Shown here: positions 7,827-23,848 of the stretch, one piece after another
Numbering within the stretch: the stretch's first letter is position 1
Layout: each line of letters begins with the position of its first letter
DNA from: an uncultured virus (IMG/VR IMGVR_UViG_3300043411_001904)
Lineage: Duplodnaviria; Heunggongvirae; Uroviricota; Caudoviricetes
DNA: 64,000 bases
IMG/VR virus record: IMGVR_UViG_3300043411_001904
Strand: one strand, 5' to 3'
Made by a program: the position numbers and the translations under genes
Notes under the pieces: model-generated
Seen by the model: the letters and a program-made list of their open reading frames with translations, nothing else
Databases searched by the model: none
Told to the model about the DNA's origin: nothing

Positions 7827-7842
7827 TTTAGTTAGGTGTTAG

Positions 7843-7915
7843 ATGAGGAAATGGGACTTGAACCCATATCTTCGGAGCCAGAATCCGAAATCATAACCAA
7901 TTAGACTATTCCTCA
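7843..7915 (-). tRNA. tRNA-Gln(CUG)
   Basis: TGAGGAA/TTCCTCA acceptor; anticodon arm TCGGA-TTCTGGC-TCCGA; T arm ATGGG-TTCAAGT-CCCAT. Confidence 0.9.
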
Positions 7916-7921
7916 ATTTTG

Positions 7922-8005
7922 CTACGGAAGTAGGACTCGAACCTACACAGGACTTTCGTCCAACTGGGGCCAAAACCCAGCGCCATGCCATTAGGCGATT
8001 CCGCA
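7922..8005 (-). tRNA. tRNA-Gln(UUG) with long variable arm
   Basis: CTGGG-TTTTGGC-CCCAG anticodon arm; variable arm GGAC-GAAA-GTCC; T arm GTAGG-TTCGAGT-CCTAC. Confidence 0.85.
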
Positions 8006-8012
8006 ATTTTAG

Positions 8013-8083
8013 ATGCCTGACCTGGATTCGAACCAGGGATAAGTGAGCCAAAATCACTTGTGTTACCACTACACTATCAGGCA
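8013..8083 (-). tRNA. tRNA-Gln(UUG)
   Basis: TGCCTGA/TCAGGCA acceptor; AGTGA-TTTTGGC-TCACT; CCTGG-TTCGAAT-CCAGG. Confidence 0.92.
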
Positions 8084-8085
8084 AT

Positions 8086-8130
8086 AAAAAAACAAAAAAC
8101 CGATCAATTTTGAGATTGATCGGTTTTTTG
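8086..8130 (-). terminator. Intrinsic terminator (attenuator) upstream of the tRNA-Gln cluster
   Basis: AAAAAACCGATCAAT-CTCAAA-ATTGATCGGTTTTTT followed by GTTTTTTT. Confidence 0.85.
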
Positions 8131-8150
8131 AGTATTTTTTGGACAATACT

Positions 8151-8210
8151 TTACCTCTCAATCTGTCGATTGCTTTGCTGAGGTTGCTGGTATGTTCCGT
8201 TGAAGTTCAT
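8151..8210 (-). CDS. Gln-rich leader peptide MNFNGTYQQPQQSNRQIER
   Basis: 19-codon ORF with 5 Gln codons (CAG x3, CAA x2); 3' end complementary to the terminator 5' arm. Confidence 0.8.
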   Translation of the reverse strand: MNFNGTYQQPQQSNRQIER

Positions 8211-8224
8211 TGTTGTATATATTA

Positions 8225-8232
8225 CAAATATA
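8225..8232 (-). promoter_or_regulatory. Bacteroidota-type -7 promoter box (TATATTTG)
   Basis: Matches TAnnTTTG, 14 nt upstream of the leader ATG; -33 box only TTCG. Confidence 0.6.
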
Positions 8233-8783
8233 ATATTTGTTTTTAACAATTCGAATCTATGTAAGTATTAATTTTTCCACTTTCCCAAGTATCCAATAAA
8301 GAGAAGGCTTCCTCTTCAGTTAACTTTCTAATTCCACAATGAAATGGAGAACAATCTCCTTCTACACCAATTAAAAGAGAAATCCCAACTATAGAATCAT
8401 TTTCATAGTCAACTGATACGCAAAGATTTGGATGATACCTACAATCCTCGTAATATTCTCCGATTTTTATTTCCATAATACAAATATAACACTAAACATT
8501 AAATAATACAATTTAACCTATCATCCCTGATTTCATCAATTGTCTTGAAAAATTTATTTCCAAAATCATCATATTCATAAAATGGACTAATTCTAACACC
8601 AATACAGGGAATATCACGAGATATTCTAAGAAATGAAGTGTTTGGTTTATCACACCCAATAACTTTAACATCATTGGAATTTACTCTCTCAATTAAATCA
8701 TACTCCTTACCAACTTCCATCGTAAGATAAGGCCGAACACAAATAACTTTCATTTCACAAAAATACTAATATTTTACAAATAT

Positions 8784-9299
8784 TCAAAATTTATATTTTA
8801 AATAAATCCTTGCTCCCCATTTTTCTTCATCATTGACCCAATTTCCATTTTCACCATCACGACCAATCTCAACATAACCAGCATCCACAAGGTCATAATT
8901 TGTTAGCTGTTCAATTTTTTGAATGAAACTAGTATTTTTTAGACTATTAATCAACTCTTTCTTTAAACTTTGTATCTTTTCTCTGTTCTTATCATCAGCT
9001 CTTCCACGTAATCTTATTCCATTATAGATTAAATTCACGATTGATTTCGAGTTGTAAATAATATTTGCAAATTCACTAAGATCTGATCCAACTTTATGAG
9101 TAAGAAGTATTTCAACAAAATACTTTTCCTTGCCCCTCATTTTCATGATGTACGAATCGATATGCATATCACTAGGAGACACCTTATAATCAAATTCGTA
9201 ATCAAATTCTATATCTTGAACAATATCTTCAAGTGTATCAAAATCACGATCTAAATCACCATTGGGATTAAAACTATCAAAGAGTTTAAGATGATCCAT
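8784..9299 (-). CDS. Hypothetical protein with N-terminal MDHLKLFDSF motif
   Basis: 171 aa ORF; AATATATA upstream. Confidence 0.6.
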   Translation of the reverse strand: MDHLKLFDSFNPNGDLDRDFDTLEDIVQDIEFDYEFDYKVSPSDMHIDSYIMKMRGKEKYFVEILLTHKVGSDLSEFANIIYNSKSIVNLIYNGIRLRGRADDKNREKIQSLKKELINSLKNTSFIQKIEQLTNYDLVDAGYVEIGRDGENGNWVNDEEKWGARIYLKYKF

Positions 9300-9309
9300 T
9301 TATTATATA

Positions 9310-10185
9310 TTATGATAATATATTCTTTTTATGGACATTTACTCTTCCAGATACCCAACCCATTATTAAATATCTATTCAAATCATTTTTTTTAATTTTT
9401 ATATTTTTTCCTTCTCTATTTATCCATAAAGTTCCGTGTTGAGAATTTTTTTCTCCCCTTTGATTAATAGAATTTTTTTCTCCTATTTTCTTTTTACTGT
9501 CCTCACTATGTCTACGACCTTTCCAAATTGGAAATATTGAACCATCCACAAATCTAGGATCATCTCTATGGGCTAAAAAATAATCACCACTCATATTGCT
9601 ACTCAGTATCATATTCTTATTTAACCCACTGTGAATATCAACGTTAAACTTATCTCTTTCTATAAATTCATTTTTTCCTAATATATTGTTTCTGACACAC
9701 ATTTTTAATTTAATCAACGAGGTTAGTGATTTATTATATCTTTCATCATCAACTGGTATATAAAAAAAATTTCCAAACTCATCACACGCGGTCACATTTC
9801 CCTTTGTGATCCCAACTAATTCCCCAGAAGATATTCTTGGATCACTAACATTAACATCAAATGTATTACCATCAACATCTCTAACTGTCGCAAGATCTTT
9901 TGTTATGAATCCACCACCAATAATAATATTATAAACATCACCTCTTTTCAAAAATGAATCATTAACTAATTCAGACTCCTTTTTAATCATATCACTTTCG
10001 TTATCAAATTGATATAAAATTACCTTCTCAAAATTGGAAATTCCATATTCAGAAATTGCTTTTGTGATTTTCCTACCAGACCCCATATAACCATCATTTA
10101 TATTACGTGTTATATGAACACCAATGTAAATCATTTTATTGATTTTATTGGTTATTTGATACACTAGATATTTTCTATCTCTCAT
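9310..10185 (-). CDS. GIY-YIG (Seg-like) homing endonuclease
   Basis: VYQITNKINKMIYIGVH, YMGSG, NUMOD3-like WKGRRHSEDSKKKIG; start moved to MRDRKY because the upstream part overlaps a tRNA. Confidence 0.85.
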   Translation of the reverse strand: MRDRKYLVYQITNKINKMIYIGVHITRNINDGYMGSGRKITKAISEYGISNFEKVILYQFDNESDMIKKESELVNDSFLKRGDVYNIIIGGGFITKDLATVRDVDGNTFDVNVSDPRISSGELVGITKGNVTACDEFGNFFYIPVDDERYNKSLTSLIKLKMCVRNNILGKNEFIERDKFNVDIHSGLNKNMILSSNMSGDYFLAHRDDPRFVDGSIFPIWKGRRHSEDSKKKIGEKNSINQRGEKNSQHGTLWINREGKNIKIKKNDLNRYLIMGWVSGRVNVHKKNILS

Positions 10186-10232
10186 GTTCGATATTAGTTT
10201 TATGTATATATAAAAATATCGAACCCTCTTTG

Positions 10233-10305
10233 TGGCAAAAACCGGACTCGAACCGACATCATCCAAATCCCAAATTTGGTGGCTTACCAATTAGCCCATT
10301 TCGCC
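10233..10305 (-). tRNA. tRNA-Pro(UGG)
   Basis: CCAAA-TTTGGGA-TTTGG anticodon arm; GTCGG-TTCGAGT-CCGGT T arm; G1-C72 acceptor. Confidence 0.8.
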
Positions 10306-10315
10306 AATATTTCGG

Positions 10316-10407
10316 TCGGGACGAGAGGAATCGAACCTCTGAGGGGATTTTGTATTCCCACCCCATTCCAAGTGGGGGCCGCTACCTGACTACGGGCCTA
10401 CGTCCCG
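10316..10407 (-). tRNA. tRNA-Pro(UGG) with long variable arm
   Basis: CGGGACG/CGTCCCG acceptor, A73; CCCCA-CTTGGAA-TGGGG; variable arm GGGA-ATACAAAA-TCCC; AGAGG-TTCGATT-CCTCT. Confidence 0.8.
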
Positions 10408-10416
10408 AAATATTTG

Positions 10417-10489
10417 CGGCCTGTCCCGGTTACGCTCCGAGTACTTAGCAGTGACAGTGCTAGATGATAAACTATTTCACCAAAAGGCC
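10417..10489 (-). tRNA. tRNA-Asp(GUC), divergent T loop
   Basis: TAGCA-CTGTCAC-TGCTA; G73; T loop AGCGTAA. Confidence 0.7.
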
Positions 10490-10540
10490 AATAAAATTCT
10501 CGTCTCTCCGAAACGTCAAGCCTTGATACAGCGGCTTCCC
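10490..10540 (-). repeat. Two-hairpin element, copy 1, directly 5' of tRNA-Asp
   Basis: AAGCC-loop-GGCTT GAC GTTTCG-GAGAGA-CGAGAATTTTATT. Confidence 0.75.
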
Positions 10541-10546
10541 CTGCGG

Positions 10547-10623
10547 CGGTCTGTAGGGGTAACAATCCCCTCTGAATCTTCCGGGTGACGACCGGACGGC
10601 CACATCATGCAGCCCCACAGACC
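10547..10623 (-). tRNA. tRNA-Asp(GUC)-like, strongly divergent
   Basis: GGTCTGT/ACAGACC acceptor, G73; TCCGG-TCGTCAC-CCGGA (C33); T loop ATTGTTA. Confidence 0.6.
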
Positions 10624-10673
10624 AATAAAATTTTCGTCTCTCCGAACGTCAAGCCTAACCTCCGTGGCTTTCC
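10624..10673 (-). repeat. Two-hairpin element, copy 2, directly 5' of tRNA-Asp
   Basis: AAGCC-loop-GGCTT GAC GTTCG-GAGAGA-CGAAAATTTTATT; stems conserved and first loop different from copy 1. Confidence 0.75.
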
Positions 10674-10708
10674 TTCTTTTATCTACATCAGATGTGGAAA
10701 TGTATCTT

Positions 10709-10743
10709 AAAACAAAAATCCCGTTAATCTTTCGACTAACGGG
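10709..10743 (-). terminator. Intrinsic terminator (attenuator) upstream of the Asp/Pro tRNA cluster
   Basis: CCCGTTAGTC-GAAA-GATTAACGGG then ATTTTTGTTTT. Confidence 0.85.
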
Positions 10744-10767
10744 TTCGTGTTCTGTGTTTTATCTAAA

Positions 10768-10863
10768 TCACATGAACATATAGTTAGTCCCATTCAATCT
10801 TGGATCAAGATCGATCACAACCATCGGTTGGGGGTTAACGTTTATGTTGATGTTGAAATTCAT
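10768..10863 (-). CDS. Leader peptide MNFNININVNPQPMVVIDLDPRLNGTNYMFM
   Basis: 31-codon ORF with Pro CCC/CCG/CCA and Asp GAT x2; internal GACTAAC complementary to the terminator 5' arm. Confidence 0.7.
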   Translation of the reverse strand: MNFNININVNPQPMVVIDLDPRLNGTNYMFM

Positions 10864-10905
10864 AATTCTATATATTAAAATATTTTCTCTCTTTTTACTT
10901 ATTTA

Positions 10906-10938
10906 CAAATATAATACAAAGTTTTCTAATTTTCCAAA
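10906..10938 (-). promoter_or_regulatory. Bacteroidota sigma70-type promoter
   Basis: TTTG-N21-TATATTTG. Confidence 0.75.
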
Positions 10939-10943
10939 TTTAT

Positions 10944-11612
10944 TTATCTTTTTGATCGATTAGGTACTTGTTGAGGTCTTGGATTGGTCCTTGGAACACT
11001 ATTTCGATCATTTCGTGGTGGATTAACTCTCTGAGGGGTTCTCACAGGGATAGGACGACTCGGAAATGGATAAGTTTCGATACTGCGACTTTCCCAACGA
11101 GGTGTATTTGTAACAGGACGCTTGGGAGTACGAAGATCAATTCTACTAGAACGTGGTTGAGAATTCAAAATTATCGATCGACCCACACTCGGTCGTGGAG
11201 AAACAATATATCCACCATTTATATTGTCTCCATAAAATCCATGATGTCCGTGATGATGGTGATGATGTGACCATCCAAATCCATAATATCCATGTCCATA
11301 AGGTCTCCAAGGATTATAATATAACCCACCGTTCCAAGGATTCCAAGGATTATAGTATCCGTATGGATTTCCCCAATACCAATCATTCCAATAAGACCCA
11401 TAATAATAATTTGAAAATCCTACTCCAAATCCAAATCTAGAAGAATTATACCATCGTGGATCATTATAAACTATATCATTATAATTTCGTTGATATCCTA
11501 TATAAGAATTATTATCAACATAATAAACATCATCCTCATACCTAGTAGATTGATGGGTAGTCGCACAGGAGAATATCAATAGTGAAAAAGCAAGTAATAA
11601 TATAACTCTCAT
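10944..11612 (-). CDS. Bacteroidota-type low-complexity lipoprotein (Tyr/Gly/Trp-rich, His run, Arg/Pro tail)
   Basis: Lipobox FSC; YEDDVYY motif; disordered C-terminus. Confidence 0.65.
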   Translation of the reverse strand: MRVILLLAFSLLIFSCATTHQSTRYEDDVYYVDNNSYIGYQRNYNDIVYNDPRWYNSSRFGFGVGFSNYYYGSYWNDWYWGNPYGYYNPWNPWNGGLYYNPWRPYGHGYYGFGWSHHHHHHGHHGFYGDNINGGYIVSPRPSVGRSIILNSQPRSSRIDLRTPKRPVTNTPRWESRSIETYPFPSRPIPVRTPQRVNPPRNDRNSVPRTNPRPQQVPNRSKR

Positions 11613-12381
11613 ATATGTTGTATGATACGAATCTTAGAAGTTTCCACTTCAGATTCCCAAGTATTTTCCACTAAACAAAGTTATTCCAATTTAGCTCCAT
11701 TCTTAACCAATTCATCAACACATTTATCAATGAAATTAATGGCAATAGGATCATTCTCGTCTATATATCCTTTCTCCTTATCAACACAATGCAGACTCTC
11801 AGCGGCACCAATGTCTAATCTATATCCCTCCGGTCTTGGAACTGACTTTAAAACTTCTTTAATCCAACTATTACAACTGTAATAACTTGATAGATATCCT
11901 TCTTTTTCTTTTGGCCCACAATAAAATTGAATTGGAACTTCGTTATCTTTAGATACCATTACTACAAAATTATCAGGATCCATTGGATACCGACTGTGTT
12001 GATTGGTATCATCTAATCTAGGTTTAATCATTTATCTCTATTTTAATCGTTATCTATAACTCCTTGCTTCAAAAAGAAATCATACCACTCTTTTGCACAA
12101 GAGCGAAAATCTTCGATTTCATATGAATCATATTCAAAAATTTGCATTGGATGTTCATCACCCCCACTACCCGAAGAATCATGAATACCATATTTTTCTT
12201 CGATTCTCTCACGCTCAATATCCATCAAACCAATAAAATCATCCCAATGCTTAGCCGATTTGAATTTTAATCGGAGTTCAAATTTAAAAACACCCTTATC
12301 AAAATCTGATTGATCCCATAGATCAAAACATCCTGCTTGATTAAGTCTAAAGATTACATTCATGTTTTTTTGTTTAGAATA

Positions 12382-12413
12382 CAAATATAAAGAAGTTATT
12401 TAACTTGACCAAA
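12382..12413 (-). promoter_or_regulatory. Bacteroidota sigma70-type promoter
   Basis: TTTG-N20-TATATTTG upstream of the ORF starting at 12363. Confidence 0.65.
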
Positions 12414-13051
12414 ATCCTACCAAAATACTTTTACTAGATATTCTCCAGGCTCAATATGTTTCTCTCGAACCAAGAGATTAAAAAGAACATGATTGCAATA
12501 ATTTGGATATTTCCCAGACTTTATCTTTAATACATCCTTCTCATCATAATCAGAGATTTTGCCATCAACTTTGAATGTATAGCTAGAACTATTATTAGCT
12601 TCCTGAGTTGATATAAACTCATAATCTCCACCATATATAGACTTAACAAATATGTCAAAAATCAACAACTCGAACAGTCTTTTCAACCACTTTTAATTTT
12701 GGTCTATTTGCGTTATCCAACCAATTTGTAAATTTCTTACTCATACATTATATATTATAAGATGTTTTCAATTTTATCATTCCTCCTAAGTCTAATATCC
12801 ATATCAACTAATTTCATAACTAAATTAGCCGTCCAAGGAGCTTCATAATCATCTGGATTATGAATATCAAATACTCTACCATCCTTACCATCTAGCATCA
12901 ACCAACTACTAGTGTCCGCCATTAAATTATAATCCCCGAAAATAAGCAAATCATAAACACTATTAAAATTATGAGGCTTAAATATCCAACCCTTGTTAAC
13001 TAATTCTTTAACTAATATCTTATTCATGTATCAAATATAATATATAAACTA

Positions 13052-13396
13052 ATGAGGATCAAAAGATTTAAATCATTTAATCAAGATCTAGTTGATAAGG
13101 AATTGGTCAAAAGAACCTCTGATGGAATCATAAGATTTCTAAGAGATAATAAAATATCTACTTGGGAAGAAATGGACAATAATGAATTCACTAGAAATAC
13201 AATAAATAAAATCATTGACAAAGCGGCAAGAACATATGAAGAGGTCAAAGAAATAAAATTCTTTATGAAACTAGAACTATCAAGTATAAAATCATTGAAA
13301 AATCTTCTACAGGACCTCATAGAATCAGAAGAATATGAAAAATGTAGATTAGTTCAGAACAGAATTAATCAAATAGAAGAGTCAAGTTATTTCTAA
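13052..13396 (+). CDS. Hypothetical protein with C-terminal UVR-like motif
   Basis: MRIKRFKSFN start; ESEEYEKCRLVQNRI. Confidence 0.55.
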   Translation: MRIKRFKSFNQDLVDKELVKRTSDGIIRFLRDNKISTWEEMDNNEFTRNTINKIIDKAARTYEEVKEIKFFMKLELSSIKSLKNLLQDLIESEEYEKCRLVQNRINQIEESSYF

Positions 13397-15197
13397 TTAT
13401 ATACCAATTTTGATCATATTCCATTCCCTTGCTAATTCCCTGAAAGATTCCCCGATCGGCAAAGAGATAATGCAATATCGTATTCCCACATCAAAATATT
13501 TACCCGTATCATATTCACCAAAATAAATATCCCCTATTTTATCATGATCCACTCGAATTTGTATAGAATTGAAAGATACATCATCATATAATAATCGTAA
13601 CCAACTATCTAAATATCGACTTGGAGTAATATGTTCCAAAAAAGGAATTCCTCTTTCTCTATCAAACTTATAATAAATCATTCGACAGTCTCAACACTAA
13701 CATGCTCGTATTCATGTCCAGCAGATGATCGACCTCTGATAAATCCCCACGCCTTCCCACTAGGATTGTCCAATTCTTTTTGGACTCTTTCCCTTAGACC
13801 TTCAGGTTCACTCCAATCATAAAATCCAATTTCTAGATGAAGTTTCATAATTTTGCGAGCCGATTCTTCGAGTTCTGCAGGAGAATCCCCTTTATAGTAA
13901 TAATTCCCATGCTTTGATTTCAAAACTAAAATTTTCATATTTCAATTTTTTCAATTGTAATGTTACCTAATACAAGCTCATTATATAGTCCAATGGCTCT
14001 TATCGCGTCTTTCCTAGAAAGGAATGGTGGAGAAACCTTACGATCTTTTTCCAGCGAAGGATATTCATATTTAAGATCTAAATTAAATTTACCCAATTGG
14101 AGTGGAGCTCTAGTATCTAGATAAATATAATTTTTGTAAGTATTGACAATTTTAGTTGGTTGCTTAAAAATATTATCATTCGAAATCCTTTCAGTGGTTT
14201 CCCTTACAACAGGATAAAAAAATCCCGAATTGGGACATGTTTCAATAAAAAATTCATATTTAGTCGGTGATATATCAACAGATGACCATTTTGGCCTAAT
14301 ACCAAACCATTTATACTTAAATCGGATAACCTTTTTATTGAAAAATTCACTAATTTTTTCAAATCTCATTTTAATTTGTTTTTGGCCAATGTTTAGCTAA
14401 TGTATTGCTAAAATCATTAATATTCAAATCAAAAATTTTATCTATCAATTTATCTCTATTAATTTGTGTTGAATACACAGGAACACAAAATCCATTTTCA
14501 TAATCATAGTCAGAGTAATATCCACTATCATAATCATCATCGGGATCCCACGCATATATTCCCATTTCTCTTAATTCCTCGGATCCTATAAATTGATATC
14601 CGGACCCAATAGAATTGGGATAGGACCAACGGCGAGGACGATGAAGACTTGAAGAAATAATAACTTCAAATTCCCATAAATCAGAATCTGTAACCTTAGA
14701 TGTATGTACTCTATGAGTTGTCATAGAAATATATATCTAAAATAAAGAATCTAGTTTAGATCTCCTTTGATACTCCCTCCAAAGCTTTTTAACCTTATCG
14801 TAGTTATCACCAGACCCACTAAAATCTGTATCGAAAATAACAATATTAATTTTATCTTTCGAAAACATACTCTTGGTATTATCTTTTATTTGGAAAGGAG
14901 CAAATCCATTATTCTGTATACTGAAATGAATTGCACAAAAAATTAGATTATCATCACTCATCCCACTAATAGCAGGTAACCTAGAAGAATCATGAGAATG
15001 CCAATTTTTCGAGTTATTAGAGATCCGATAATATTCTTTGAAAAAATCCTGAATAATGGGATTCTTATATTTAATCCAATCACCATCGAGGGATATGAAG
15101 TTATGATACTTGTCGCTTTTTACAAAATCGACGACTTCAGAGAAGTCTTCTGAAGCCTCATCAAATATTGCAACTCGAATATTCATTATTTATATAG

Positions 15198-15288
15198 CAG
15201 AGGCTGAGGGATTCGAACCCCCGATTCGGAATTTCACCGAATTCATGTTTTCAAGACATGTGCAATAAACCAACTCTACCAAGCCTCT
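15198..15288 (-). tRNA. tRNA-Ser(UGA)
   Basis: CATGT-CTTGAAA-ACATG; long variable arm; G73; GGGGG-TTCGAAT-CCCTC. Confidence 0.9.
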
Positions 15289-15607
15289 GTATTTATTAAA
15301 CAAATATACTACTTTTTAAGAATATAATTTAAATTAATTTCTCTATGTATTTTCAATTTGTCAATGGGTTCTTTTATATATTCAAGATATTCAGACCAAC
15401 TATCGCTCCTCCGAAGAATATCAATCTCTGAATCCATAGATCGAGCAATATCCTCAACTTCACCAACTGTGTGTGAATTAATAAGATTAGAATATAAATT
15501 CTCTATATTTTCTTTATTTAGAGAGAATTTATACAAGTAAATCAATTCACGTTGAACATAATCCTTATAACTTTGGAAATCAGGAGATACATCTTCCACA
15601 CAAGACA

Positions 15608-16339: not shown

Positions 16340-16702
16340 ATGAAACATATCCATTCGTTTGAATCAATTCAAATAATAGATAAAAAATTAGAGAATGATT
16401 TTCAAGATATCGAAGACTATTTTGTAGACCTATTCGATGAGACAAATAATAAATGGAATATTAGGGTCCGATTTGGATTTGTTGGTATACAAATTAATAT
16501 AACAGATGAATATAAAGGACACGCGTATAGACCACATCATAAAGAAGTAATTTTAATCAAAAGAAATAAAATCGATCATATCGTATCAAATTGCATGGAC
16601 AGATTAGCTTCCTCAAAAAATTTAGTAGCAAAATTCAAGAAAAAAAGATACGATGGGGGAAAGACAATCGGGTATTCTTGCTCCCTCTTTGGATACGAAT
16701 AA
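16340..16702 (+). CDS. Hypothetical protein with MKHIHSFES motif
   Basis: ATG overlaps the upstream stop region. Confidence 0.55.
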   Translation: MKHIHSFESIQIIDKKLENDFQDIEDYFVDLFDETNNKWNIRVRFGFVGIQINITDEYKGHAYRPHHKEVILIKRNKIDHIVSNCMDRLASSKNLVAKFKKKRYDGGKTIGYSCSLFGYE

Positions 16703-16923
16703 TGATATACACTGATGGAGTTCATTTAGTCGCTGATTCTCTAGAAGAACTACATAAATTTGCCTCTAAAGTGGGACTTAATAGAAGGTATTTTGAAGGT
16801 GTTCGTAAAAAACACCCACACTACGATCTAACAAACGAAAGAGTAAGAAACCTATCAATAGAATTTGGTGCTATTGAGATCACCTCTAGAGAAGTACTGA
16901 TAAAGTCTAAATTAATAAAGTAA
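16702..16923 (+). CDS. DUF4031-like protein
   Basis: HLVADSLEELHKFA..GL.R..F....HYDL. Confidence 0.75.
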   Translation: MIYTDGVHLVADSLEELHKFASKVGLNRRYFEGVRKKHPHYDLTNERVRNLSIEFGAIEITSREVLIKSKLIK

Positions 16924-16937
16924 TATAATTATCATTG

Positions 16938-17008
16938 AGCGGGATAACGGTACTCCCCCGTTTTATATAGCTTGGAAGGCTACCACATTAGTTTTATGCT
17001 AATCCCGC
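16938..17008 (-). tRNA. tRNA-Gly(UCC), divergent D/T loops
   Basis: GCGGGAT/ATCCCGC acceptor, U73; GTAGC-CTTCCAA-GCTAT. Confidence 0.7.
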
Positions 17009-17009
17009 A

Positions 17010-17140
17010 AAAGATAGAGAACACTGAAAAGTGTGTTTTTCTGTGCTACCATTACACTACACCAACTAAGTTGGGTCAGGATTCGAACCTGAACTCGTCA
17101 TTTTCAAGATGAAGTAACACTTTTACTCACTACTATCTTT
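17010..17140 (-). ncRNA. YrlA/Y-RNA-like permuted tRNA mimic, copy 1
   Basis: Terminal stem AAAGATAG/CTATCTTT; inner stem AAAAGTGT/ACACTTTT; T arm TCAGG-TTCGAAT-CCTGA, then closed acceptor-like hairpin, then D arm TAGTGTAATGGTAGCAC. Confidence 0.75.
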
Positions 17141-17154
17141 ATATATAAATTGTA

Positions 17155-17709
17155 ATGTCAAAGAAGTTTAAAATAAAACCATTCAAAAATTTTCTAAAAG
17201 AATCTAAAGAAGAAATATATGATTCTTTTATCGAATTAGAAGATGAAGGATTTTGTCAAATAAGTGTCTCCTACTTAAAAGATCTTGTAAAAGAAAATGG
17301 AAACTTTTATATCTTCCAATATGATTTATCAAAAATCATAGATTATCTATGTAAAAAACAAAAAATATCAACACCAGATTCTATTCAAGATAACATACTA
17401 AACAATAAGTGGTCAACCGAAAGACACGCCGCTGCATGGATATCAAATCTAGATGACAAAGATAAAGAAGAAATTAATACAATTAATAAAATAATCAAAA
17501 ATATAATAGTAATTGAAATAGAATGGAAAACCAATTTATTTACTTTAGATTCCAATAAAGCAAGAAATCATGACGGAATGGTATATCTTGAAAATTTAAT
17601 TGATAGAATTAAATATAATTATAAAGTATACTACAATAGTAACGAAATATATTATCTTGATAAAGAATCCAATTCTTGTAAGACAAAACTATTATTAGAT
17701 CCTTTATAA
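17155..17709 (+). CDS. Hypothetical protein with IKPFKNFLKE motif
   Basis: 184 aa ORF. Confidence 0.55.
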   Translation: MSKKFKIKPFKNFLKESKEEIYDSFIELEDEGFCQISVSYLKDLVKENGNFYIFQYDLSKIIDYLCKKQKISTPDSIQDNILNNKWSTERHAAAWISNLDDKDKEEINTINKIIKNIIVIEIEWKTNLFTLDSNKARNHDGMVYLENLIDRIKYNYKVYYNSNEIYYLDKESNSCKTKLLLDPL

Positions 17710-18264
17710 TTCACAAATTAATTTTATACTCTCATCCACATTTGACGAGTAATGAATGTGTCTATAATCAAACATAGCATTTATCTTTGAAAGAAAATTA
17801 TCTATTGCATTTCTGAAATCATTTCTAGCTTTAAATCTTCCACCTTGAGAAATAATCGAACTAATCCTAGTCTCTGAACCAAAATATAAAGTGAAGATAA
17901 TATTACTATCCAATAAAAGCTCAAAATCATTACCCACTATCCAACTAGCATATTCACCATTTGTATAAAAATCCACTCCGATACAAGTTAGAATTTCTAA
18001 ATTTTGATCTATTTCAAAAAGAGGAACAACATCAGCATTAAATAGGCTTCCTTGATCTTCCTCATAATCAGGTCCCTTTAAACAAACCTCAACAACCAAC
18101 TGATATCCATCATCTTCTAACTCCTGAAAAAGATCATAAAGGTTAGCAACCTTGGATTTATTACTTTCATAAGCCATTGCCACAAATTGTGACAATTCTT
18201 TACGTTCTGGAACTCTTTTATTCATTCTAGGAAAATCGAATGATTCGTATCTCTTTATTATCAT
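17704..18264 (-). CDS. Hypothetical protein, paralog of 18261-18785
   Basis: MIIKRYESF; NLYDLFQELEDDG. Confidence 0.55.
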   Translation of the reverse strand: MIIKRYESFDFPRMNKRVPERKELSQFVAMAYESNKSKVANLYDLFQELEDDGYQLVVEVCLKGPDYEEDQGSLFNADVVPLFEIDQNLEILTCIGVDFYTNGEYASWIVGNDFELLLDSNIIFTLYFGSETRISSIISQGGRFKARNDFRNAIDNFLSKINAMFDYRHIHYSSNVDESIKLICEL

Positions 18265-18785
18265 AAAAATCTCAAATTATATTTATAGGTGACATATATA
18301 TCAGGATTTAGCGGAAACCCATCATGTGACTCACTGAGTATCTTGACATACGGACCTAAAGCATTAATGTATTCATTGACTAGACGACTAAAATGATCAT
18401 AGTGTCTAATTGTTCTTCTGTCCAAAACCTGTGGTCGTTGAAATACATCATCAGGTCCATATACCAAACTGAAATATGTACTTTTTATCTCAATCTTCAC
18501 TTCAACAAGGTCCCTATCAATATTACCGTTTTCTAATAGTTTTAATTTAAACCACTTATCTTCTAATGAATTTGGTTTAAGATTTTTATCCAGGCTAAAA
18601 ATTTGAGTCTCTTCCCTTTCCGAAAAATAAACCACTGAAACTCTCAATGTCAATCCACCATCCTCATAATCTTGAAAGACATCAAATAAATTCTCCACAT
18701 CACCTGAGTATTCCGAAATAAACCAATCATAAATAGTCTCAATGACTCCCCTCGATTCAGATTCAAAATATTTGAGATAAATCAT
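18261..18785 (-). CDS. Hypothetical protein
   Basis: MIYLKYFESE; NLFDVFQDYEDGG. Confidence 0.55.
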   Translation of the reverse strand: MIYLKYFESESRGVIETIYDWFISEYSGDVENLFDVFQDYEDGGLTLRVSVVYFSEREETQIFSLDKNLKPNSLEDKWFKLKLLENGNIDRDLVEVKIEIKSTYFSLVYGPDDVFQRPQVLDRRTIRHYDHFSRLVNEYINALGPYVKILSESHDGFPLNPDIYVTYKYNLRFL

Positions 18786-19447
18786 TACTTTTTAGATTTT
18801 ATATATCTAAATAAATCCTCAATTGTTGATCTCGTTCGGGTATTAGATTTCATTAAAATCACCATATCTTTAAGTAATAAAACAAACAACACAACAAAAG
18901 CAATGACCAAAAATGATCCCACTATAATAGATCGGTAGTAACTCTTATCATACGAATCCAAAACTTCTTTTAATTTGACATCATTACTTTCCAATGAATT
19001 TGAAATAGATGATTTAAGAATCGATCTAATACCTCGATTCAGAGAAGAATTTCTATCATGAAAAACATCAGCATTATCACATAAAATACTGTCCTCTCTG
19101 TAATCAATAAGAGCTCTAAATTTCATGTCCATCATGGAATCTAATTTAACACTATCATCATTGGAAAAAATCAAAAGACCATTTCTCAAAAAATCCATAT
19201 ATCTATACTCGGACTCAAAATCTCTATCATTAATAATATCAGATTCAATTCTATCATCCACTGTATAAATTCGATTAGAAATAGAAACTAACATGGAAAC
19301 ATCCCGATTTATATTTTCAATGGAATATCTCTTGGATTTCAAATCTCGAATATTAGAATTCATAATAGATATTCCCGTCATATATGTAAATATAGTCAAC
19401 ACTAATAATACAATGACTTTAATCTTGAACTTGAAACCTATATCCAT
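18785..19447 (-). CDS. Two-TM membrane protein resembling a sensor ectodomain
   Basis: TM at each end of a ~140 aa helical region. Confidence 0.5.
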   Translation of the reverse strand: MDIGFKFKIKVIVLLVLTIFTYMTGISIMNSNIRDLKSKRYSIENINRDVSMLVSISNRIYTVDDRIESDIINDRDFESEYRYMDFLRNGLLIFSNDDSVKLDSMMDMKFRALIDYREDSILCDNADVFHDRNSSLNRGIRSILKSSISNSLESNDVKLKEVLDSYDKSYYRSIIVGSFLVIAFVVLFVLLLKDMVILMKSNTRTRSTIEDLFRYIKSKK

Positions 19448-19462
19448 GTATTATATATTAAC

Positions 19463-20281
19463 TTACAAAAGATTAATATCGATACCATGTGTATCATACC
19501 ACCACTCAGGTGATTTGCCCAAGTGCTTATTTTTTAACTTATTATATCTCTCAAGTATCTTACTTTGTCTTTTTACTTCATCATGATAAAATTCGTGATC
19601 AACAATAATATCATTCTTAAAGCACTCTCGAAGCAATTTTCTTAAAATATATCCATGTTTCAAGTTACCCGGAACAAACCCGGATTGTATTATTTTCAAA
19701 ACAGAATCTCTAAGAATATCCTCTTTGGTTCTAACTATCCCATGAAACATTTCTAACCTTTCAAGACCAAATCCAACATCAATTGATTGACCTAGCGGAT
19801 TAACAATATTCCCAATTTCAATACCATTCTTATAGAACTCAGTGCAATATCCACCAATATCACCATCCGACCAAATACACTCAGGATCCAATCTAACATC
19901 ACAATTTGGATAAAGATCAATCCAATCTTTTTTATCAGGATGAATAGTAAAATAATCAGGAATAACATCAATTGATTTCAAAAAATCCAACCAAAAATCC
20001 ACAGTCCACTGAATACTTTTCTCCTTGAAAGAAAAAAGACCCATCATATTGAAGTATAAGAAATGTGTTCCATCACCAATTTGATCAAAATCATTTAATC
20101 GAAGACATGGCTGAATATTTCCAATAGTTGATTCATCCGGATTCTTGAATTTTGATTTAAACTGCTGCATCCCAGCAGGACAAAAAAGGGTCGTATCATC
20201 ATACGACCCAATAGATAGGTTTTCCTGAAATGGTATTCCATTCAAGACGCAAAATTCTTTATATTTTTGAGATATATTCAT
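19463..20281 (-). CDS. Alanyl-tRNA synthetase N-terminal catalytic domain only (272 aa)
   Basis: DDTTLFCPAGMQQFK, QPCLR, GDGTH..F.MMG.FSF, GYCTEF, EIGNIV, IDVGFGLERL, GYILRKLLR. Confidence 0.85.
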   Translation of the reverse strand: MNISQKYKEFCVLNGIPFQENLSIGSYDDTTLFCPAGMQQFKSKFKNPDESTIGNIQPCLRLNDFDQIGDGTHFLYFNMMGLFSFKEKSIQWTVDFWLDFLKSIDVIPDYFTIHPDKKDWIDLYPNCDVRLDPECIWSDGDIGGYCTEFYKNGIEIGNIVNPLGQSIDVGFGLERLEMFHGIVRTKEDILRDSVLKIIQSGFVPGNLKHGYILRKLLRECFKNDIIVDHEFYHDEVKRQSKILERYNKLKNKHLGKSPEWWYDTHGIDINLL

Positions 20282-20354
20282 GGAGCGAAAGAGGAGAATC
20301 GAACTCCCATCTAAGCCTTGGCAAGGCCTTATAATACCACTATACGACTTTCGC
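20281..20354 (-). tRNA. tRNA-Gly(GCC) with encoded CCA
   Basis: GCGAAAG/CTTTCGC-TCCA; AGGCC-TTGCCAA-GGCTT. Confidence 0.92.
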
Positions 20355-20356
20355 AA

Positions 20357-20497
20357 AAGATAGAGAAAATTGATCAGTGAGTTTTTTTCTGTGCTACCAT
20401 TACACTACATCGGCATAAAAACTTGAGCCGACGCCGGGATTCGAACCCGGTCTAGTCATTTGAAATATGAAGTAACACTAATCTTCACTACTATCTT
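20357..20497 (-). ncRNA. YrlA/Y-RNA-like permuted tRNA mimic, copy 2
   Basis: AAGATAG/CTATCTT ends; GATTAGTG/CACTGATC stem; CCGGG-TTCGAAT-CCCGG; GTCGGC/GCCGAT hairpin; same D arm as copy 1. Confidence 0.75.
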
Positions 20498-20498
20498 G

Positions 20499-20571
20499 TA
20501 GTCTCAACCGGTGACGATCCGGCTTCTTCGCCTTGAGAAAGCGATGTCCTACCAACGTAGACGATGAGACC
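20499..20571 (-). tRNA. tRNA-Glu(CUC)
   Basis: TCGCT-TTCTCAA-GGCGA; D arm GTCT/GGAC typical of Glu; T loop ATCGTCA. Confidence 0.8.
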
Positions 20572-20596
20572 ATTTTAAATACATAATATATACATT

Positions 20597-20980
20597 GTGA
20601 AACACATTAAACTATTTGAAAAGTATCAAGATCATCCTATTCTAGATTTCTTTAATGACATCATAGATGATTATAAAATTGAAGTAACTGAACAGAATCC
20701 TAGAACTGAAGTCCATATACAAAATATACCAAAATACAAACCAATATTAAATGATGATTTGAAAAATATTATTTCAATTCTTAAACAATATCGGCCATCA
20801 CAAAGCAGACATGACGGATGGGGAGATCGAAAAAGACCAATTGTTGATTCCTACTTAAGAGATCTACCATTTATAAAAAGAATCGAAGATACTTCAGGAT
20901 ATTCATTGATCGACTTTTCAACAACTGGATTTTTTGATTATAGAGAAAATTATGGATTATGGTTAATATTCATTAAATAA
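20597..20980 (+). CDS. Hypothetical protein with MKHIKLFE motif
   Basis: GTG start after TAATATATA. Confidence 0.55.
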   Translation: MKHIKLFEKYQDHPILDFFNDIIDDYKIEVTEQNPRTEVHIQNIPKYKPILNDDLKNIISILKQYRPSQSRHDGWGDRKRPIVDSYLRDLPFIKRIEDTSGYSLIDFSTTGFFDYRENYGLWLIFIK

Positions 20981-21029
20981 ACAAACGTGGACTTAAAGGA
21001 TTAAGACTGACTTTTATGAAATTTCAAAA

Positions 21030-21326
21030 CTAATATCCACCTCTTGAATTTATAAATTCATCATCTTTAATTGCGTCTTTTATATAATCAAGAGCACTAT
21101 CCAAAGTAAAAACACTATATAAGTAATTTTCCACAGGACCAACAAATCCAGTCATTTGCTTAAGATTATTGTTGGTATTTTCACATTCTTTTTCAGCATC
21201 AGCCTTATCTAAGTAAACATGATACCCAAATTCTGTATCTCTTCGTCTGTATATAACCCAAACATTCGAAATTGATAGTCCATTTGGACTAGATTCAGAT
21301 GATTCAAAAGTTTTAAGATGTTTCAT
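21030..21326 (-). CDS. Hypothetical protein with MKHLKTFES motif
   Basis: 98 aa ORF. Confidence 0.55.
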   Translation of the reverse strand: MKHLKTFESSESSPNGLSISNVWVIYRRRDTEFGYHVYLDKADAEKECENTNNNLKQMTGFVGPVENYLYSVFTLDSALDYIKDAIKDDEFINSRGGY

Positions 21327-21993
21327 TTGTTATATATAAGCTCAGCGAAGTAAAAAATTTACTTTTTAAGTAATTTTTCTAATTGGTCTATCCACTCTAG
21401 ACTAGCTTCTCGATTAAGATATACTTCCATTTTATCCTCATCTTTAACTTCAAAATCATACAGTTCCTTAACCACAACATACCAACCATCAGTAAAATTT
21501 TCACTTATATCCAACTCGATATCATCATTTATCCTTTTAGTGAAGGTAGGATTAAGAATACATTTTTTTTCTCCACCATCTAGAGTATATTCTGTCCAAT
21601 TAATTCTATTCTCATTAACTGACCAACCCCTATCGATCATATTATCAAATTTAGTTCGATCAATTTCATACCCAACTTGAATATGTTTATCCAATTTCTG
21701 AAACTCTTGATCCTTGCGTGTTTGTAAGTCTGTTGTGTTATTCATAATATAAATATATTAAAATTTTTTATAATCCAAATTGGTCTAGTGTGGATCATTC
21801 GACAATATCTGATCTATTTTTAAACATCTTTTAGCACCGATCAATTGTTCTTCATAATAATTAAAAGATATTGAACTATTTTGATCACAGACATGACATA
21901 CAAATTTCATGTAAATGAAATGACAATTCCAATCATAGATCCTAATATATTTATGATAACATTTATCACAGATCATACTGTTATATATAGATG

Positions 21994-22069
21994 TGGACAC
22001 AGGGGGAATCGAACCCACTATTTTAGACAATCATTGCAAGTGATTGTGCCTGCCTTCGGCTTCTGGCCC
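21994..22069 (-). tRNA. tRNA-Ala(UGC), irregular acceptor stem
   Basis: AATCA-CTTGCAA-TGATT; G3:U70 and A73 retained; TTCGATT T loop. Confidence 0.7.
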
Positions 22070-22085
22070 ATTTAATAATTCAAAA

Positions 22086-23105
22086 CTAGAATTCTGATCC
22101 GTACTTTTCATACATTTTTATCCATTTCCTAACACAAGAATCAGATACTTCATATTTTCTTCCTGTTCCTCTATATCCATATATTTTAATATCTTCCAAT
22201 AAAGTATTTAGATCAGGTCTGCTAACTCTTCTTTGAGATAAGCTGTATTGATATGTCTTCTTTGTTATAGAGTGTTGAAACGGCTCATATTCTATATTCA
22301 ATTTTAACTTTCTATTCGATTTTTTTTCGCTGGAAGGCCTTTTTGTCCGTCCCCGTTTTTTTATAAATATTTCTGATTTAGATATTTTTTTATATCGATG
22401 GTAAGAATATACTCCAAATTTTGGATCTCCTGTATTCAGAAAAGATCTAAGTATTTCGATACAATCATCCATTTCAAATTGAATTTTGGAAGCTGAAAAT
22501 CTCAAAACTACCCATCCATTCGAAATCAATAAATCATCTTTCTTTTTATCAGATTCAATCCTATCCAAATTAGAATGTTGAGATCCATCAATTTCCACAG
22601 CAATTTTATTTAATTCAAAAGAGAAATCTATAAAATATGGGAAAAACGACCTTTCTCGAACTATCAAATATTTCTTATCCCAACCAATATCTATTATTTT
22701 AGACAGAAAAATCTTCTCTGGATAGGAAATATTGGATTGTCTCCAAGCTGTCTTTTCAGGATTTTCTTTCATAAACTTTAATCTTCGATCTCGAATTTTT
22801 TGTTTAGTTTCTTCACTGTGAAAAAATTTAAACTTAGTTCTACCCAATTTTACGGCCTCAGAAAAAGATCTTTTAATTCCAGCATTATTTAATATCCTAT
22901 TCAAAATATGTTTAGACCTCAAACCATACTTAGTATATATTTCAGTAAAATTACTTCCTAGTCTATATTCAGTTATTATTGAATTTATAATTTCTTTAGT
23001 CAAAACACAAGACTTCTCATGTCCTCTCAAAGACCCCACATTCCCAAAACTCAATTCGCATTTTTTACATATCATATGATATATATTAAGAGTTTGATCT
23101 CTCAT
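22086..23105 (-). CDS. DUF559/Vsr-like endonuclease (homing-endonuclease-like) with C-terminal HTH
   Basis: SYPEK, YFIDF, IAVEIDGSQH, SDKKKDDLL..GWVVLRF; HSEETKQKI; start may be 23075. Confidence 0.75.
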   Translation of the reverse strand: MRDQTLNIYHMICKKCELSFGNVGSLRGHEKSCVLTKEIINSIITEYRLGSNFTEIYTKYGLRSKHILNRILNNAGIKRSFSEAVKLGRTKFKFFHSEETKQKIRDRRLKFMKENPEKTAWRQSNISYPEKIFLSKIIDIGWDKKYLIVRERSFFPYFIDFSFELNKIAVEIDGSQHSNLDRIESDKKKDDLLISNGWVVLRFSASKIQFEMDDCIEILRSFLNTGDPKFGVYSYHRYKKISKSEIFIKKRGRTKRPSSEKKSNRKLKLNIEYEPFQHSITKKTYQYSLSQRRVSRPDLNTLLEDIKIYGYRGTGRKYEVSDSCVRKWIKMYEKYGSEF

Positions 23106-23114
23106 TCAAAATTG

Positions 23115-23188
23115 TAGCCCTGAGCGGTGACGATCCGCCTTTTTTGCCTTGAAAGGGCAACGTCCTAACCAGCGTAGACGACAGGGCC
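23115..23188 (-). tRNA. tRNA-Glu(UUC)
   Basis: TTGCC-CTTTCAA-GGCAA; GGCCCTG/CAGGGCT. Confidence 0.85.
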
Positions 23189-23207
23189 ATAATAATACTA
23201 ATAATTG

Positions 23208-23279
23208 TGCAGTAGACCGGATTCGAACCGACACCCTGAGCTTGGAAGGCTCTCATGCTACCATTAACACCACTTCTGC
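23208..23279 (-). tRNA. tRNA-Gly(UCC)
   Basis: GAGC-CTTCCAA-GCTC; GTCGG-TTCGAAT-CCGGT. Confidence 0.85.
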
Positions 23280-23282
23280 ATT

Positions 23283-23407
23283 TGAATTTGATATTTAGAA
23301 TTGATCAGTTGGCTCCTTGATTATGCGCAAGGCCGCGATCCATGCCTACATTCTAATTAAACACTCCCACACTGATCTTAAGCTAGGTATGTTCCATATC
23401 AAATTCA
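23283..23407 (-). ncRNA. Unidentified structured RNA inside the tRNA operon
   Basis: Perfect 12-bp terminal stem TGAATTTGATAT/ATATCAAATTCA; inner GATCAGT/ACTGATC; GGC.CTTG/CAAG..GCC hairpin. Confidence 0.6.
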
Positions 23408-23410
23408 TTG

Positions 23411-23490
23411 TTGGCGAGGTGGGATTTGAACCCACGTTTTCAACAACCACTACAGTTCTAGTGTTTATAAGACACCGCTGGTACACGCCA
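23411..23490 (-). tRNA. tRNA-Ile(UAU)-like lacking a canonical D arm
   Basis: TGGCGTG/CTCGCCA; GGTGT-CTTATAA-ACACT; GTGGG-TTCAAAT-CCCAC; 7 nt between acceptor and anticodon stems; 24-nt variable region. Confidence 0.7.
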
Positions 23491-23495
23491 ATATG

Positions 23496-23590
23496 TTGGG
23501 GGAGTGAGACTCGAACTCACCTACTGGAAAGGCCAATACATCAATTTGATAACCCAGGACAGTTTTACAGACTGTTGATGTTATCCCCCA
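23496..23590 (-). tRNA. tRNA-Tyr(GUA)-like lacking a canonical D arm
   Basis: TGGGGGA/TCCCCCA, A73; ACAGT-CTGTAAA-ACTGT; GTGAG-TTCGAGT-CTCAC; very long variable region. Confidence 0.7.
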
Positions 23591-23640
23591 TTTTTATCTC
23601 AATATTTCAAAGAAATCTTTCTCACTTTCTCACTTTCTTA

Positions 23641-23683
23641 AAACGAAAAAACCCTGTCTGATTTTTCCAATCGGACAGGGTTT
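23641..23683 (-). terminator. Intrinsic terminator (attenuator) upstream of the Tyr/Ile/Gly/Glu/Ala tRNA cluster
   Basis: AAACCCTGTCCGATT-GGAAA-AATCAGACAGGGTTT then TTTCGTTT. Confidence 0.85.
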
Positions 23684-23701
23684 CTGTGTTTTCAATTCGT
23701 G

Positions 23702-23794
23702 TTAACACATACTTCGTCCGATCGATGAGGCTCCCTCATACGCATAGCCTGCTTCTGCTATTCCGACGATTGATATGTAGTTAACGTTTTTCAT
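23702..23794 (-). CDS. Leader peptide MKNVNYISIVGIAEAGYAYEGASSIGRSMC
   Basis: 30-codon ORF; 17 of residues 6-26 are Y/I/G/A/E; ATCGGAC complementary to the terminator 5' arm. Confidence 0.8.
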   Translation of the reverse strand: MKNVNYISIVGIAEAGYAYEGASSIGRSMC

Positions 23795-23798
23795 ATTA

Positions 23799-23830
23799 CA
23801 AATGTATATATAATTTTCTATTATACCAAA
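23799..23830 (-). promoter_or_regulatory. Bacteroidota sigma70-type promoter for leader 3
   Basis: TTTG-N20-TACATTTG, 4 nt before the ATG. Confidence 0.7.
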
Positions 23831-23848
23831 TTTATTTTTATTCTTTTG

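Follow-up and report, generated by a model that had tools for sequence, protein, structure and literature searches.

Putative leader-peptide attenuators ahead of tRNA gene clusters in a huge phage and its relatives

The stretch of DNA analysed here, called the window, is 64,000 nt of the uncultured virus IMGVR_UViG_3300043411_001904 (IMG/VR; Caudoviricetes), and our subject is the short leader regions that stand ahead of its tRNA gene clusters and resemble ribosome-mediated transcription attenuators. ARAGORN called 12 tRNA genes in the window, every one on the minus strand and between positions 7842 and 23929, and Rfam gave extra tRNA matches at 23411-23490 and 16938-17008. Three units on this strand, singled out by a first-pass annotation made from the sequence alone, share a layout in which a TAnnTTTG box is followed by a short open reading frame (ORF; 19, 31, and 30 codons), an intrinsic terminator, and then tRNA genes (Table 1), and all three were recovered with ORFs in the range of 19-31 codons that the annotation had given. 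Terminator-like hairpins were enriched between 7000 and 25000, with 18 found versus 6.7 ± 2.6 in shuffled sequences, and the terminators of units 1, 2, and 3 had energies of -19.3, -14.5, and -18.6 kcal/mol, each with a T tract.

The same annotation had reported that at least 7 nt near the end of each ORF are complementary to the 5' arm of the terminator, and an exact 7-nt complement was confirmed in each unit: AGATTGA at 8164..8158, GACTAAC at 10789..10783, and ATCGGAC at 23722..23716. Among mononucleotide shuffles (2000 per unit), 7 nt were reached in 36, 33, and 74 cases, respectively. Two of its other statements held in part. The terminator lies just before the first tRNA in unit 1, where the first tRNA-Gln starts at 8083, 9 nt past the terminator, but not in units 2 and 3, where 231 and 370 nt separate it from the first tRNA called by ARAGORN at default settings, with degenerate tRNA-like genes lying between. 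Nor are the three sequences wholly unrelated, as had been claimed, since the promoter type is common to all of them, as is the pattern M-(K/N/T)-(N/T/F)-x-N at the N-terminus. The promoter 14-mer TATTATATTTGTAA occurs in three exact copies in the window; the TTTG-N19-TAnnTTTG pattern, however, was not enriched there (2 matches versus 0.65 expected, with 12 of 100 shuffles reaching 2), so the promoter boxes prove nothing by themselves. Matches to sigma-70 promoters were at chance level (111 versus 103.5 expected).

Table 1. Positions of the features of the three units and of related elements in the window.
Feature	Position	Strand	Details
Unit 1 promoter box	8222..8235	-	TATTATATTTGTAA; holds TAnnTTTG (TATATTTG) at 8232..8225
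Unit 1 leader ORF	8151..8210	-	MNFNGTYQQPQQSNRQIER + stop, 19 codons
Unit 1 segment 2	8153..8164	-	CAGATTGAGAGG; putative antiterminator 5' strand
Unit 1 intrinsic terminator	8085..8130	-	16-17 bp stem 8130..8093 + T tract
tRNA-Gln(UUG), tRNA-Gln(UUG), tRNA-Gln(CUG)	7842..8083	-	ARAGORN, Rfam
Phage glutaminyl-tRNA synthetase (GlnRS)	5067..6716	-	Pfam tRNA-synt_1c, E 2.6e-85
Unit 2 promoter box	10903..10916	-	Same 14-mer as unit 1; box 10913..10906; TTTG 21 nt upstream
Unit 2 leader ORF	10768..10863	-	MNFNININVNPQPMVVIDLDPRLNGTNYMFM + stop, 31 codons; conserved core NPQP..D.DP
Unit 2 segment 2	10783..10799	-	AGATTGAATGGGACTAAC; complementary to terminator 5' arm
Unit 2 intrinsic terminator	10720..10743	-	
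Low-scoring extra tRNA-Asp(GUC)	10545..10623	-	ARAGORN at -ps95; same ~32-nt element ahead as next tRNA-Asp
tRNA-Asp(GUC), tRNA-Gly(CCC), tRNA-Pro(UGG)	10232..10489	-	ARAGORN
Unit 3 promoter	23799..23830	-	TTTG 23830..23827, 20 nt, TACATTTG 23806..23799; ATG 4 nt later
Unit 3 leader ORF	23702..23794	-	MKNVNYISIVGIAEAGYAYEGASSIGRSMC + stop, 30 codons
Unit 3 segment 2	23715..23724	-	CGATCGGACG; putative antiterminator 5' strand
Unit 3 intrinsic terminator	23649..23683	-	
tRNA-like element, Tyr (GUA) anticodon loop	23495..23590	-	Anticodon read by eye; no ARAGORN or Rfam call
tRNA-like gene, Ile (UAU) anticodon loop	23411..23490	-	Rfam tRNA 33.2 bits; aligns with tRNA-Ile(UAU) of relatives; no ARAGORN call
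tRNA-Gly(UCC), tRNA-Glu(UUC)	23114..23279	-	ARAGORN
TTAATATATA examples	10869-10878, 19452-19461, 23080-23089, 23938-23947, 24416-24425, 46452-46461	-	

The leader of unit 1 contains 5 Gln codons among the 18 residues after the start codon, where 0.4 would be expected (p = 5e-5). Relatives were collected by a search with GlnRS, which gave 13 IMG/VR loci, and two GenBank huge-phage records were added. The ORF and terminator that the annotation had proposed to look for in related phages proved to be conserved: the window, both GenBank records, and 10 of the 13 IMG/VR loci each have a Gln-run leader and a terminator directly ahead of tRNA-Gln or GlnRS. In these 10 loci the short leader ORF contains 4-7 Gln codons in a row, and the terminator ends 6-10 nt before the first tRNA-Gln; MRTTTQYQQQQQINPTD and MVNITINIQQQQQQQTLNKGSGIALS are examples. 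In locus L006 the Gln leader and terminator are followed by a small ORF and GlnRS with no tRNA between. The remaining three loci comprise one that ends at a contig edge (L004), one without a tRNA at that place (L003), and one with a different leader (L010). Downstream of the tRNAs of unit 1, on the same strand, come three small ORFs and then GlnRS, which in the relatives starts about 18 nt past the last tRNA-Gln; unit 1 probably gates the phage GlnRS as well. The protein encoded at 7386..7826, beside the Gln cluster, had no relatives among viral contigs.

The Asp/Pro leader of unit 2, with its core NPQP..D.DP followed by TN-Y, recurred in 7 of the 13 loci and in both GenBank records, and an exact-pattern scan for terminators of the Asp/Pro type matched only six viral contigs, five of them among the relatives already collected. 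The Gln unit follows directly after the last tRNA of the Asp/Pro cluster in G001, G003, L008, and both GenBank records, and these genomes thus carry two attenuator-like units in series. Directly ahead of each of the two tRNA-Asp genes of the window (10490-10522 and 10620-10654, minus strand) lies an element of about 32 nt, GGCTTGACGTT(T)CGGAGAGACGA(A/G)AATTTTAT, which contains a sigma-70-like TTGACG...TTTTAT pair and a small hairpin.

The same layout was found ahead of nearly every cluster in three relatives, whose tRNA hits in Rfam (59, 41, and 55) were taken as 20 regions; a cluster was defined here as all tRNAs until the next hairpin of -11 kcal/mol or stronger. HKHFSKSNKWF stands ahead of Phe, His, Phe, Trp, and four Lys tRNAs, SKSSSSRSS ahead of Arg, Ser, Ser, and Ser, YYYEGE ahead of Glu and Tyr, AIIGGGAGA ahead of Ile, Gly, Gly, and Ala, LRQLVLEQLIE ahead of Leu, Arg, Met, Glu, and Ile, and MNLNMNMNLTVVLNTL ahead of Asn, Ile, Leu, Val, Thr, and Met. 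KKKKK precedes five Lys tRNAs, and in G004 Lys is split off as a unit of its own. The leader of L010, QNQYNQNQNWYQNYQ / MKTQNQYNQNQNWYQNYQEDIILTNVNS, has tRNAs for Tyr, Trp, Asn, Asn, and later Gln behind it. The third leader of the window merges the Tyr/Glu and Ile/Gly leaders of the relatives. In the tRNA regions examined, such units precede 48 of the 53 tRNAs called by ARAGORN in G001, 32 of 35 in G003, and 46 of 51 in G004. The leader codons also foretold tRNAs that ARAGORN missed at default settings, namely Trp, Ser, and Ser in L030, Tyr and Trp in L010, and the second Asp in the window.

Downstream of unit 3, ARAGORN run with introns and low thresholds over 23280-23650 returned nothing, so that the Tyr-like element there is a by-eye reading. 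The genes with Tyr(GUA) and Ile(UAU) loops at 23411-23590 (minus strand) and their counterpart at 232690-232777 in G001 have long variable regions and apparently lack a normal D arm. These unusual genes are kept in the window and in one relative, and the corresponding site of another relative holds a canonical tRNA-Ile(UAU). Unusual anticodons were also seen among the relatives (L034 of G003 at 833-905, and L035, L036, and L033). One tRNA there carries a CUA anticodon, is labelled 'Pyl' by ARAGORN, and could be an amber suppressor; others were called with anticodons of four bases (agaa, attc). Together they hint at stop-codon or frameshift decoding in the clade.

For statistical comparison, 38 candidate units were reduced to 35 by dropping a duplicate terminator call, an ORF that overlapped a tRNA in L005, and an alternative-frame ORF of the window, MRMREPHRSDEVCVNTN; the ORF of L007 was trimmed to an internal ATG and that of L040 extended to an upstream ATG. 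Loci L014-L023, which overlap L024 and later ones, and L010, L006, L044, and L045 stood outside these statistics. A pairing of leaders with clusters scored one point for every leader residue with a tRNA for its amino acid in the cluster. No other permutation scored as high as the true pairing in G001 (1 of 5040), G003 (1 of 5040), the more distant relative G004 (1 of 120), and the window (1 of 6); L010 and L012 are also more distant relatives. Over the 35 units, the ORF frame matched at 289 of 946 positions (30.5%), versus 126 and 114 of 911 (13.8% and 12.5%) in the other two frames, and it was the best of the three in 31 units. The co-variation of codons and anticodons that the annotation had anticipated was therefore borne out against both the permutations and the other frames. 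By simple wobble rules and with no null model, 260 of the 289 matching codons have an anticodon in their cluster that can read them. Enrichment was significant for single leaders in the Gln family (p from 1e-6 to 8e-4) and for SKSSSSRSS (p 9e-6); for leaders 2 and 3 of the window it appears through comparison with their families and is not significant singly.

These results bear on the possibility that the units are general sensors of translation capacity, in which any slowing of ribosomes (few ribosomes, stress, or antibiotics) would trip the switch and codon identity would be irrelevant. Alternative hairpins alone would permit such a sensor, and the N-terminal pattern common to all leaders is unrelated to the tRNAs. 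However, the pairing of leaders with tRNAs is the unique best permutation in four genomes, and the codon matching is specific to one frame and tracks changes in cluster content. On this evidence we consider a general sensor improbable.

The RNA itself can be folded in mutually exclusive ways. In naked-RNA folds of the three window leaders, an upstream hairpin that holds segment 2 forms together with the terminator (z -5.3, -4.2, and -6.1). When the region covered by a ribosome on the regulatory codons was removed, together with the 3' arm of the terminator, the leaders folded instead into antiterminators between segments 2 and 3 with energies of -14.3, -15.2, and -20.0 kcal/mol (z -4.95, -3.47, and -4.26), comparable to those of the terminators, and none of 200 shuffles did as well. 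The shift from terminator to antiterminator under a ribosome footprint is the outcome that the annotation had proposed to look for. In unit 1, for example, the upstream partner that segment 2 has in naked RNA (1:2) is exchanged for the terminator 5' arm (2:3) if the upstream RNA is masked. Across the 35 units the terminator was within the minimum-energy fold in 34, a count with no shuffle control, and segment 2 was paired upstream in 32 and in all three window minimum-energy folds, again with no shuffle control and with partners often outside the regulatory codons. The folds model a trp-type layout with a 1:2 hairpin, a 2:3 antiterminator, and a 3:4 terminator.

To gauge duplex strength, the final 14 codons and the spacer were paired against the 5' arm and loop of the terminator, and the best duplex of each unit was taken. 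Over the 35 units z averaged -2.72, with p<0.05 in 19 and p<=0.01 in 14, and in the window the duplex reached -13.2 kcal/mol in unit 1 (z -5.2, p 0.003) and -15.8 kcal/mol in unit 3 (p 0.03), where the 2:3 helix comprises 11 bp (-20 kcal/mol, z -4.3). Own pairs averaged -12.4 kcal/mol versus -8.0 for 896 cross-family pairs, a difference for which the Mann-Whitney value of 1.7e-14 overstates independence, as the units are related. In an alignment of 13 Gln-unit sequences, the 7-bp antiterminator helix was paired in 94.4% of cells, and the whole 10-pair structure in 84.2%, versus 18-52% when the partners were slid. The ORF frame was kept in all 13 sequences, with indels in multiples of 3 nt, and the divergent members L012, L013, L006, and LR756502 have different terminators, each with its own matching ORF end. 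In this family the stop codon lies within or just past segment 2, and the regulatory codon run ends 10-25 nt upstream of segment 2, a geometry that fits the trp model.

A stable hairpin at the 5' side of a tRNA could also influence precursor maturation, and terminator activity is here predicted from sequence. The hairpins might then be processing or insulating elements for tRNA precursors, such as sites of nuclease entry or protection, and not conditional terminators. A GC-rich stem followed by a T tract is, however, the form of an intrinsic terminator, and a processing signal would have no need of a conserved, mutually exclusive partner inside a putatively translated ORF; of the three alternatives considered here, we rate this as the least probable.

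In unit 1 and most relatives the first tRNA starts 6-17 nt past the T tract, which leaves no space for a promoter. This spacing matters for the alternative that the ORFs are independent small genes or chance ORFs ending at their own terminators, with the tRNAs expressed by leakage or from other promoters and the codon likeness having no regulatory role. Tiny genes do abound in phage genomes, other candidate promoters exist (TTAATATATA occurs ahead of many gene starts and directly before tRNA-Met), and no leader belongs to four of the 12 window tRNAs, namely Met, Ser, Glu-CUC, and Gly-GCC. Against it stand, besides the spacing, the conservation in the peptides of the codon runs and the RNA-pairing segment only, and the fact that both the tRNA matching and the complementarity to the terminator would be left as coincidences. 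We judge it very improbable, slightly more so than the general sensor. All three alternatives are less likely than attenuation because each leaves either the pairing of codons with tRNAs or the complementarity between ORF and terminator unexplained.

The motif TTAATATATA is itself enriched in the window, with 59 matches (at most one mismatch) versus 39 ± 6.5 expected. It lies a few nt ahead of many start codons, ahead of leaders 1 and 2, and 8 nt ahead of tRNA-Met, and is a candidate phage-specific promoter element (-10-like) that would give near-leaderless transcripts.

Based on these comparisons, we concluded with a probability of roughly 0.85 that each unit is a leader-peptide (ribosome-mediated) transcription attenuator gating a phage tRNA cluster, and that unit 1 probably gates GlnRS too. 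The reading of the units as trp/his-type attenuators whose leader codons mirror the downstream tRNAs, advanced in the first-pass annotation, is supported by the conservation of the ORFs, the permutations of leaders and clusters, the frame test, and the folds. We infer that the leaders are translated, that this translation is coupled to transcription, and that the outcome responds to the level of the tRNAs. Transcription would begin at a Bacteroidota-type promoter, and the short leader would be translated while emerging. With charged tRNAs for the leader codons in ample supply, the ribosome would reach the stop codon and cover segment 2, the 3:4 terminator would form, and the polymerase would halt ahead of the tRNAs. 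If a charged tRNA were scarce, the ribosome would stall on the regulatory codons in segment 1, the 1:2 hairpin would open, the 2:3 antiterminator would form, and the polymerase would enter the tRNA genes. The new tRNAs, once charged, would lift the stall, amounting to negative feedback on tRNA supply with one loop per cluster. Such a switch cannot distinguish a shortage of tRNA from a shortage of charging. Its purpose may lie in making up for the decay of host tRNAs, in timing expression, or in countering anticodon nucleases or starvation.

Several results weigh against this interpretation. Translation of the leaders and read-through of the terminators are unproven predictions drawn from comparison. 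The permutation tests of G001 and G003 are not independent, as the two are close relatives. Several units of the relatives showed no enrichment by whole-peptide count (L013, for example, with 9 of 32 versus 10.1 expected), and the N-rich N-termini of the leaders have no matching tRNA in most clusters. By the same count with default tRNA calls, leader 2 matched at 6 of 30 residues versus 4.8 expected (p 0.35) and leader 3 at 6 of 29 versus 3.7 (p 0.15), the latter rising to 13 of 29 only with both uncalled tRNA-like elements included, of which one is a by-eye reading; leader 3 also has four Ala codons, and no tRNA-Ala was found. The duplex of unit 2 was -10.7 kcal/mol with p 0.096, and p was 0.05 or greater in 16 of the 35 units. 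Covariation in the Gln family was small, with two pairs changing on both sides and 35 of 500 shuffles reaching the covariation score, because the helix is conserved.

Class I leader-peptide attenuators are known from enterobacterial amino-acid operons, including trpL, hisL, leuL, pheL, thrL, and ilvL. As in these, the phage units combine a leader ORF with regulatory codon runs, an intrinsic terminator, exclusive 2:3 and 3:4 pairings with a predicted 1:2 hairpin, and a segment 2 at the end of the ORF, and the multivalent leaders known in the thr and ilv attenuators are also found here. Four of six class I features were found in the phage units: a leader ORF with start and stop codons, enrichment in cognate codons, a terminator before the first gene, and a 2:3 antiterminator with segment 2 at the ORF end. 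The remaining two are predictions: a 1:2 hairpin over the regulatory codons that would hold segment 2 in an untranslated leader, and read-through governed by leader translation and the supply of cognate charged tRNA. Unlike the enterobacterial attenuators, the phage units would regulate tRNA genes and not biosynthetic enzymes, so that the sensed molecule is the product. They also differ in their phage setting, in Bacteroidota-type promoters with no visible Shine-Dalgarno sequence, in leaders that may each cover up to about 11 amino acids (G004, L040), and in that they can stand in series inside one tRNA polycistron (G001, G003). The pheST attenuator of E. coli acts on an aminoacyl-tRNA synthetase through the pheM leader peptide, which responds to charged tRNA. 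Unit 1 is similar in preceding GlnRS, as is the Gln leader of L006 in preceding a small ORF and GlnRS without a tRNA, whereas tRNA genes are the first and main cargo of the phage units. T-box riboswitches of Firmicutes, built from a stem I with a specifier loop and a T-box sequence, bind uncharged tRNA directly and do not require translation; the phage units are like them in that the charging of one specific tRNA would choose between terminator and antiterminator ahead of genes of the translation apparatus. An Rfam search of 7000-25000 (E<=1) gave no T-box or other regulatory family, only tRNAs and weak sRNA hits. The pheL leader is mentioned in PMC3082878.

The nearest bacterial GlnRS sequences are from Flavobacteriales, at about 50-53% identity. 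We rejected the idea that the Gln leader came from a bacterial glnS gene: no Q-rich short ORF occurs upstream of glnS in any of the 80 closest bacterial loci, one of which has three tandem CAR codons there, so the Gln unit was not simply taken over with the gene.

No description of attenuation of tRNA genes was found in the full-text literature searched (about 1.7 million PMC articles and subscription journals lay outside its coverage), nor was a Gln-codon attenuator found there, and the strings 'attenuat', 'leader', and 'terminator' occur 0 times in the main text, as excerpted, of the huge-phage paper PMC7162821. Control of this kind, known for amino-acid genes, has apparently not been described for tRNA genes. 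The new points would be the tRNA gene targets, the phage setting, the Gln-codon leader, the highly multivalent leaders, and the units in series. If our interpretation is correct, classical attenuation would here sense charged tRNA, which is what the regulated gene itself directly yields, and it would be extended to glutamine and to leaders spanning up to about eleven amino acids.

A broader reading, towards which we lean with more reserve, is that about 90% of the called tRNAs in three relatives are split into some five to seven attenuator-gated regulons. The leaders would then serve as isoacceptor-specific codon 'test strips', recoded as tRNAs move, with which the phage gauges host decoding codon by codon and tops up only the tRNAs that have run short, also when host tRNAs have decayed or been cut by anticodon nucleases. 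The timing of phage tRNA expression is largely unknown, and a demand switch for each cluster would explain the carrying of 40-60 tRNA genes without constant cost. It may also allow the tRNAs that a phage treats as limiting to be predicted from sequence, as leader codons have already revealed tRNAs that default gene finders missed, and the units may serve as compact, codon-programmable sensors of decoding capacity for Bacteroidota.

The neighbouring genes include a family B DNA polymerase, ribonucleotide reductase, helicases, GIY-YIG and DUF559 endonucleases, and a class I Glu/Gln-type tRNA synthetase, and the nearest sequences were viral contigs of 55-519 kb and two GenBank 'uncultured phage' records of 634,780 and 642,428 bp. 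Gene content and nearest sequences together identify the source as a huge phage. According to the excerpted text of PMC7162821, genomes above 634 kb belong to the Mahaphage clade, for which Bacteroidetes hosts are predicted, and the host of the window phage is likewise predicted to be of the Bacteroidota type. The GIY-YIG (Seg-like) endonuclease gene at 9310-10290 and the DUF559 endonuclease gene at 22086-23105, both on the minus strand, are inserted beside or within tRNA clusters. The former has 66-72% DNA identity to homing endonucleases of T4-like phages, and a homing-endonuclease gene was the sole match when a phage collection was searched at the DNA level with 7800-11000.

An ORF of 272 amino acids at 19463-20281 (minus strand) covers the N-terminal catalytic motif region of alanyl-tRNA synthetase (AlaRS; Pfam tRNA-synt_2c, E 6e-18 on a longer TTG frame). 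It encodes a truncated AlaRS-like protein, and its start overlaps the end of tRNA-Gly(GCC) by 1 nt. A 'terminator' called at 20209..20188 was rejected, as it sits within this coding sequence. Two similar elements at 17020-17134 and 20385-20470 (minus strand) carry a tRNA 3' half (T arm and acceptor 3' strand) ahead of a 5' half (acceptor 5' strand and D arm) and look like a permuted or split tRNA or a Y-RNA-like (YrlA) tRNA mimic. Rfam gave a sub-threshold YrlA match at 17020-17108 (29 bits, E 0.01), and a weak match of the same sort occurs at 3468-3567 in L010.

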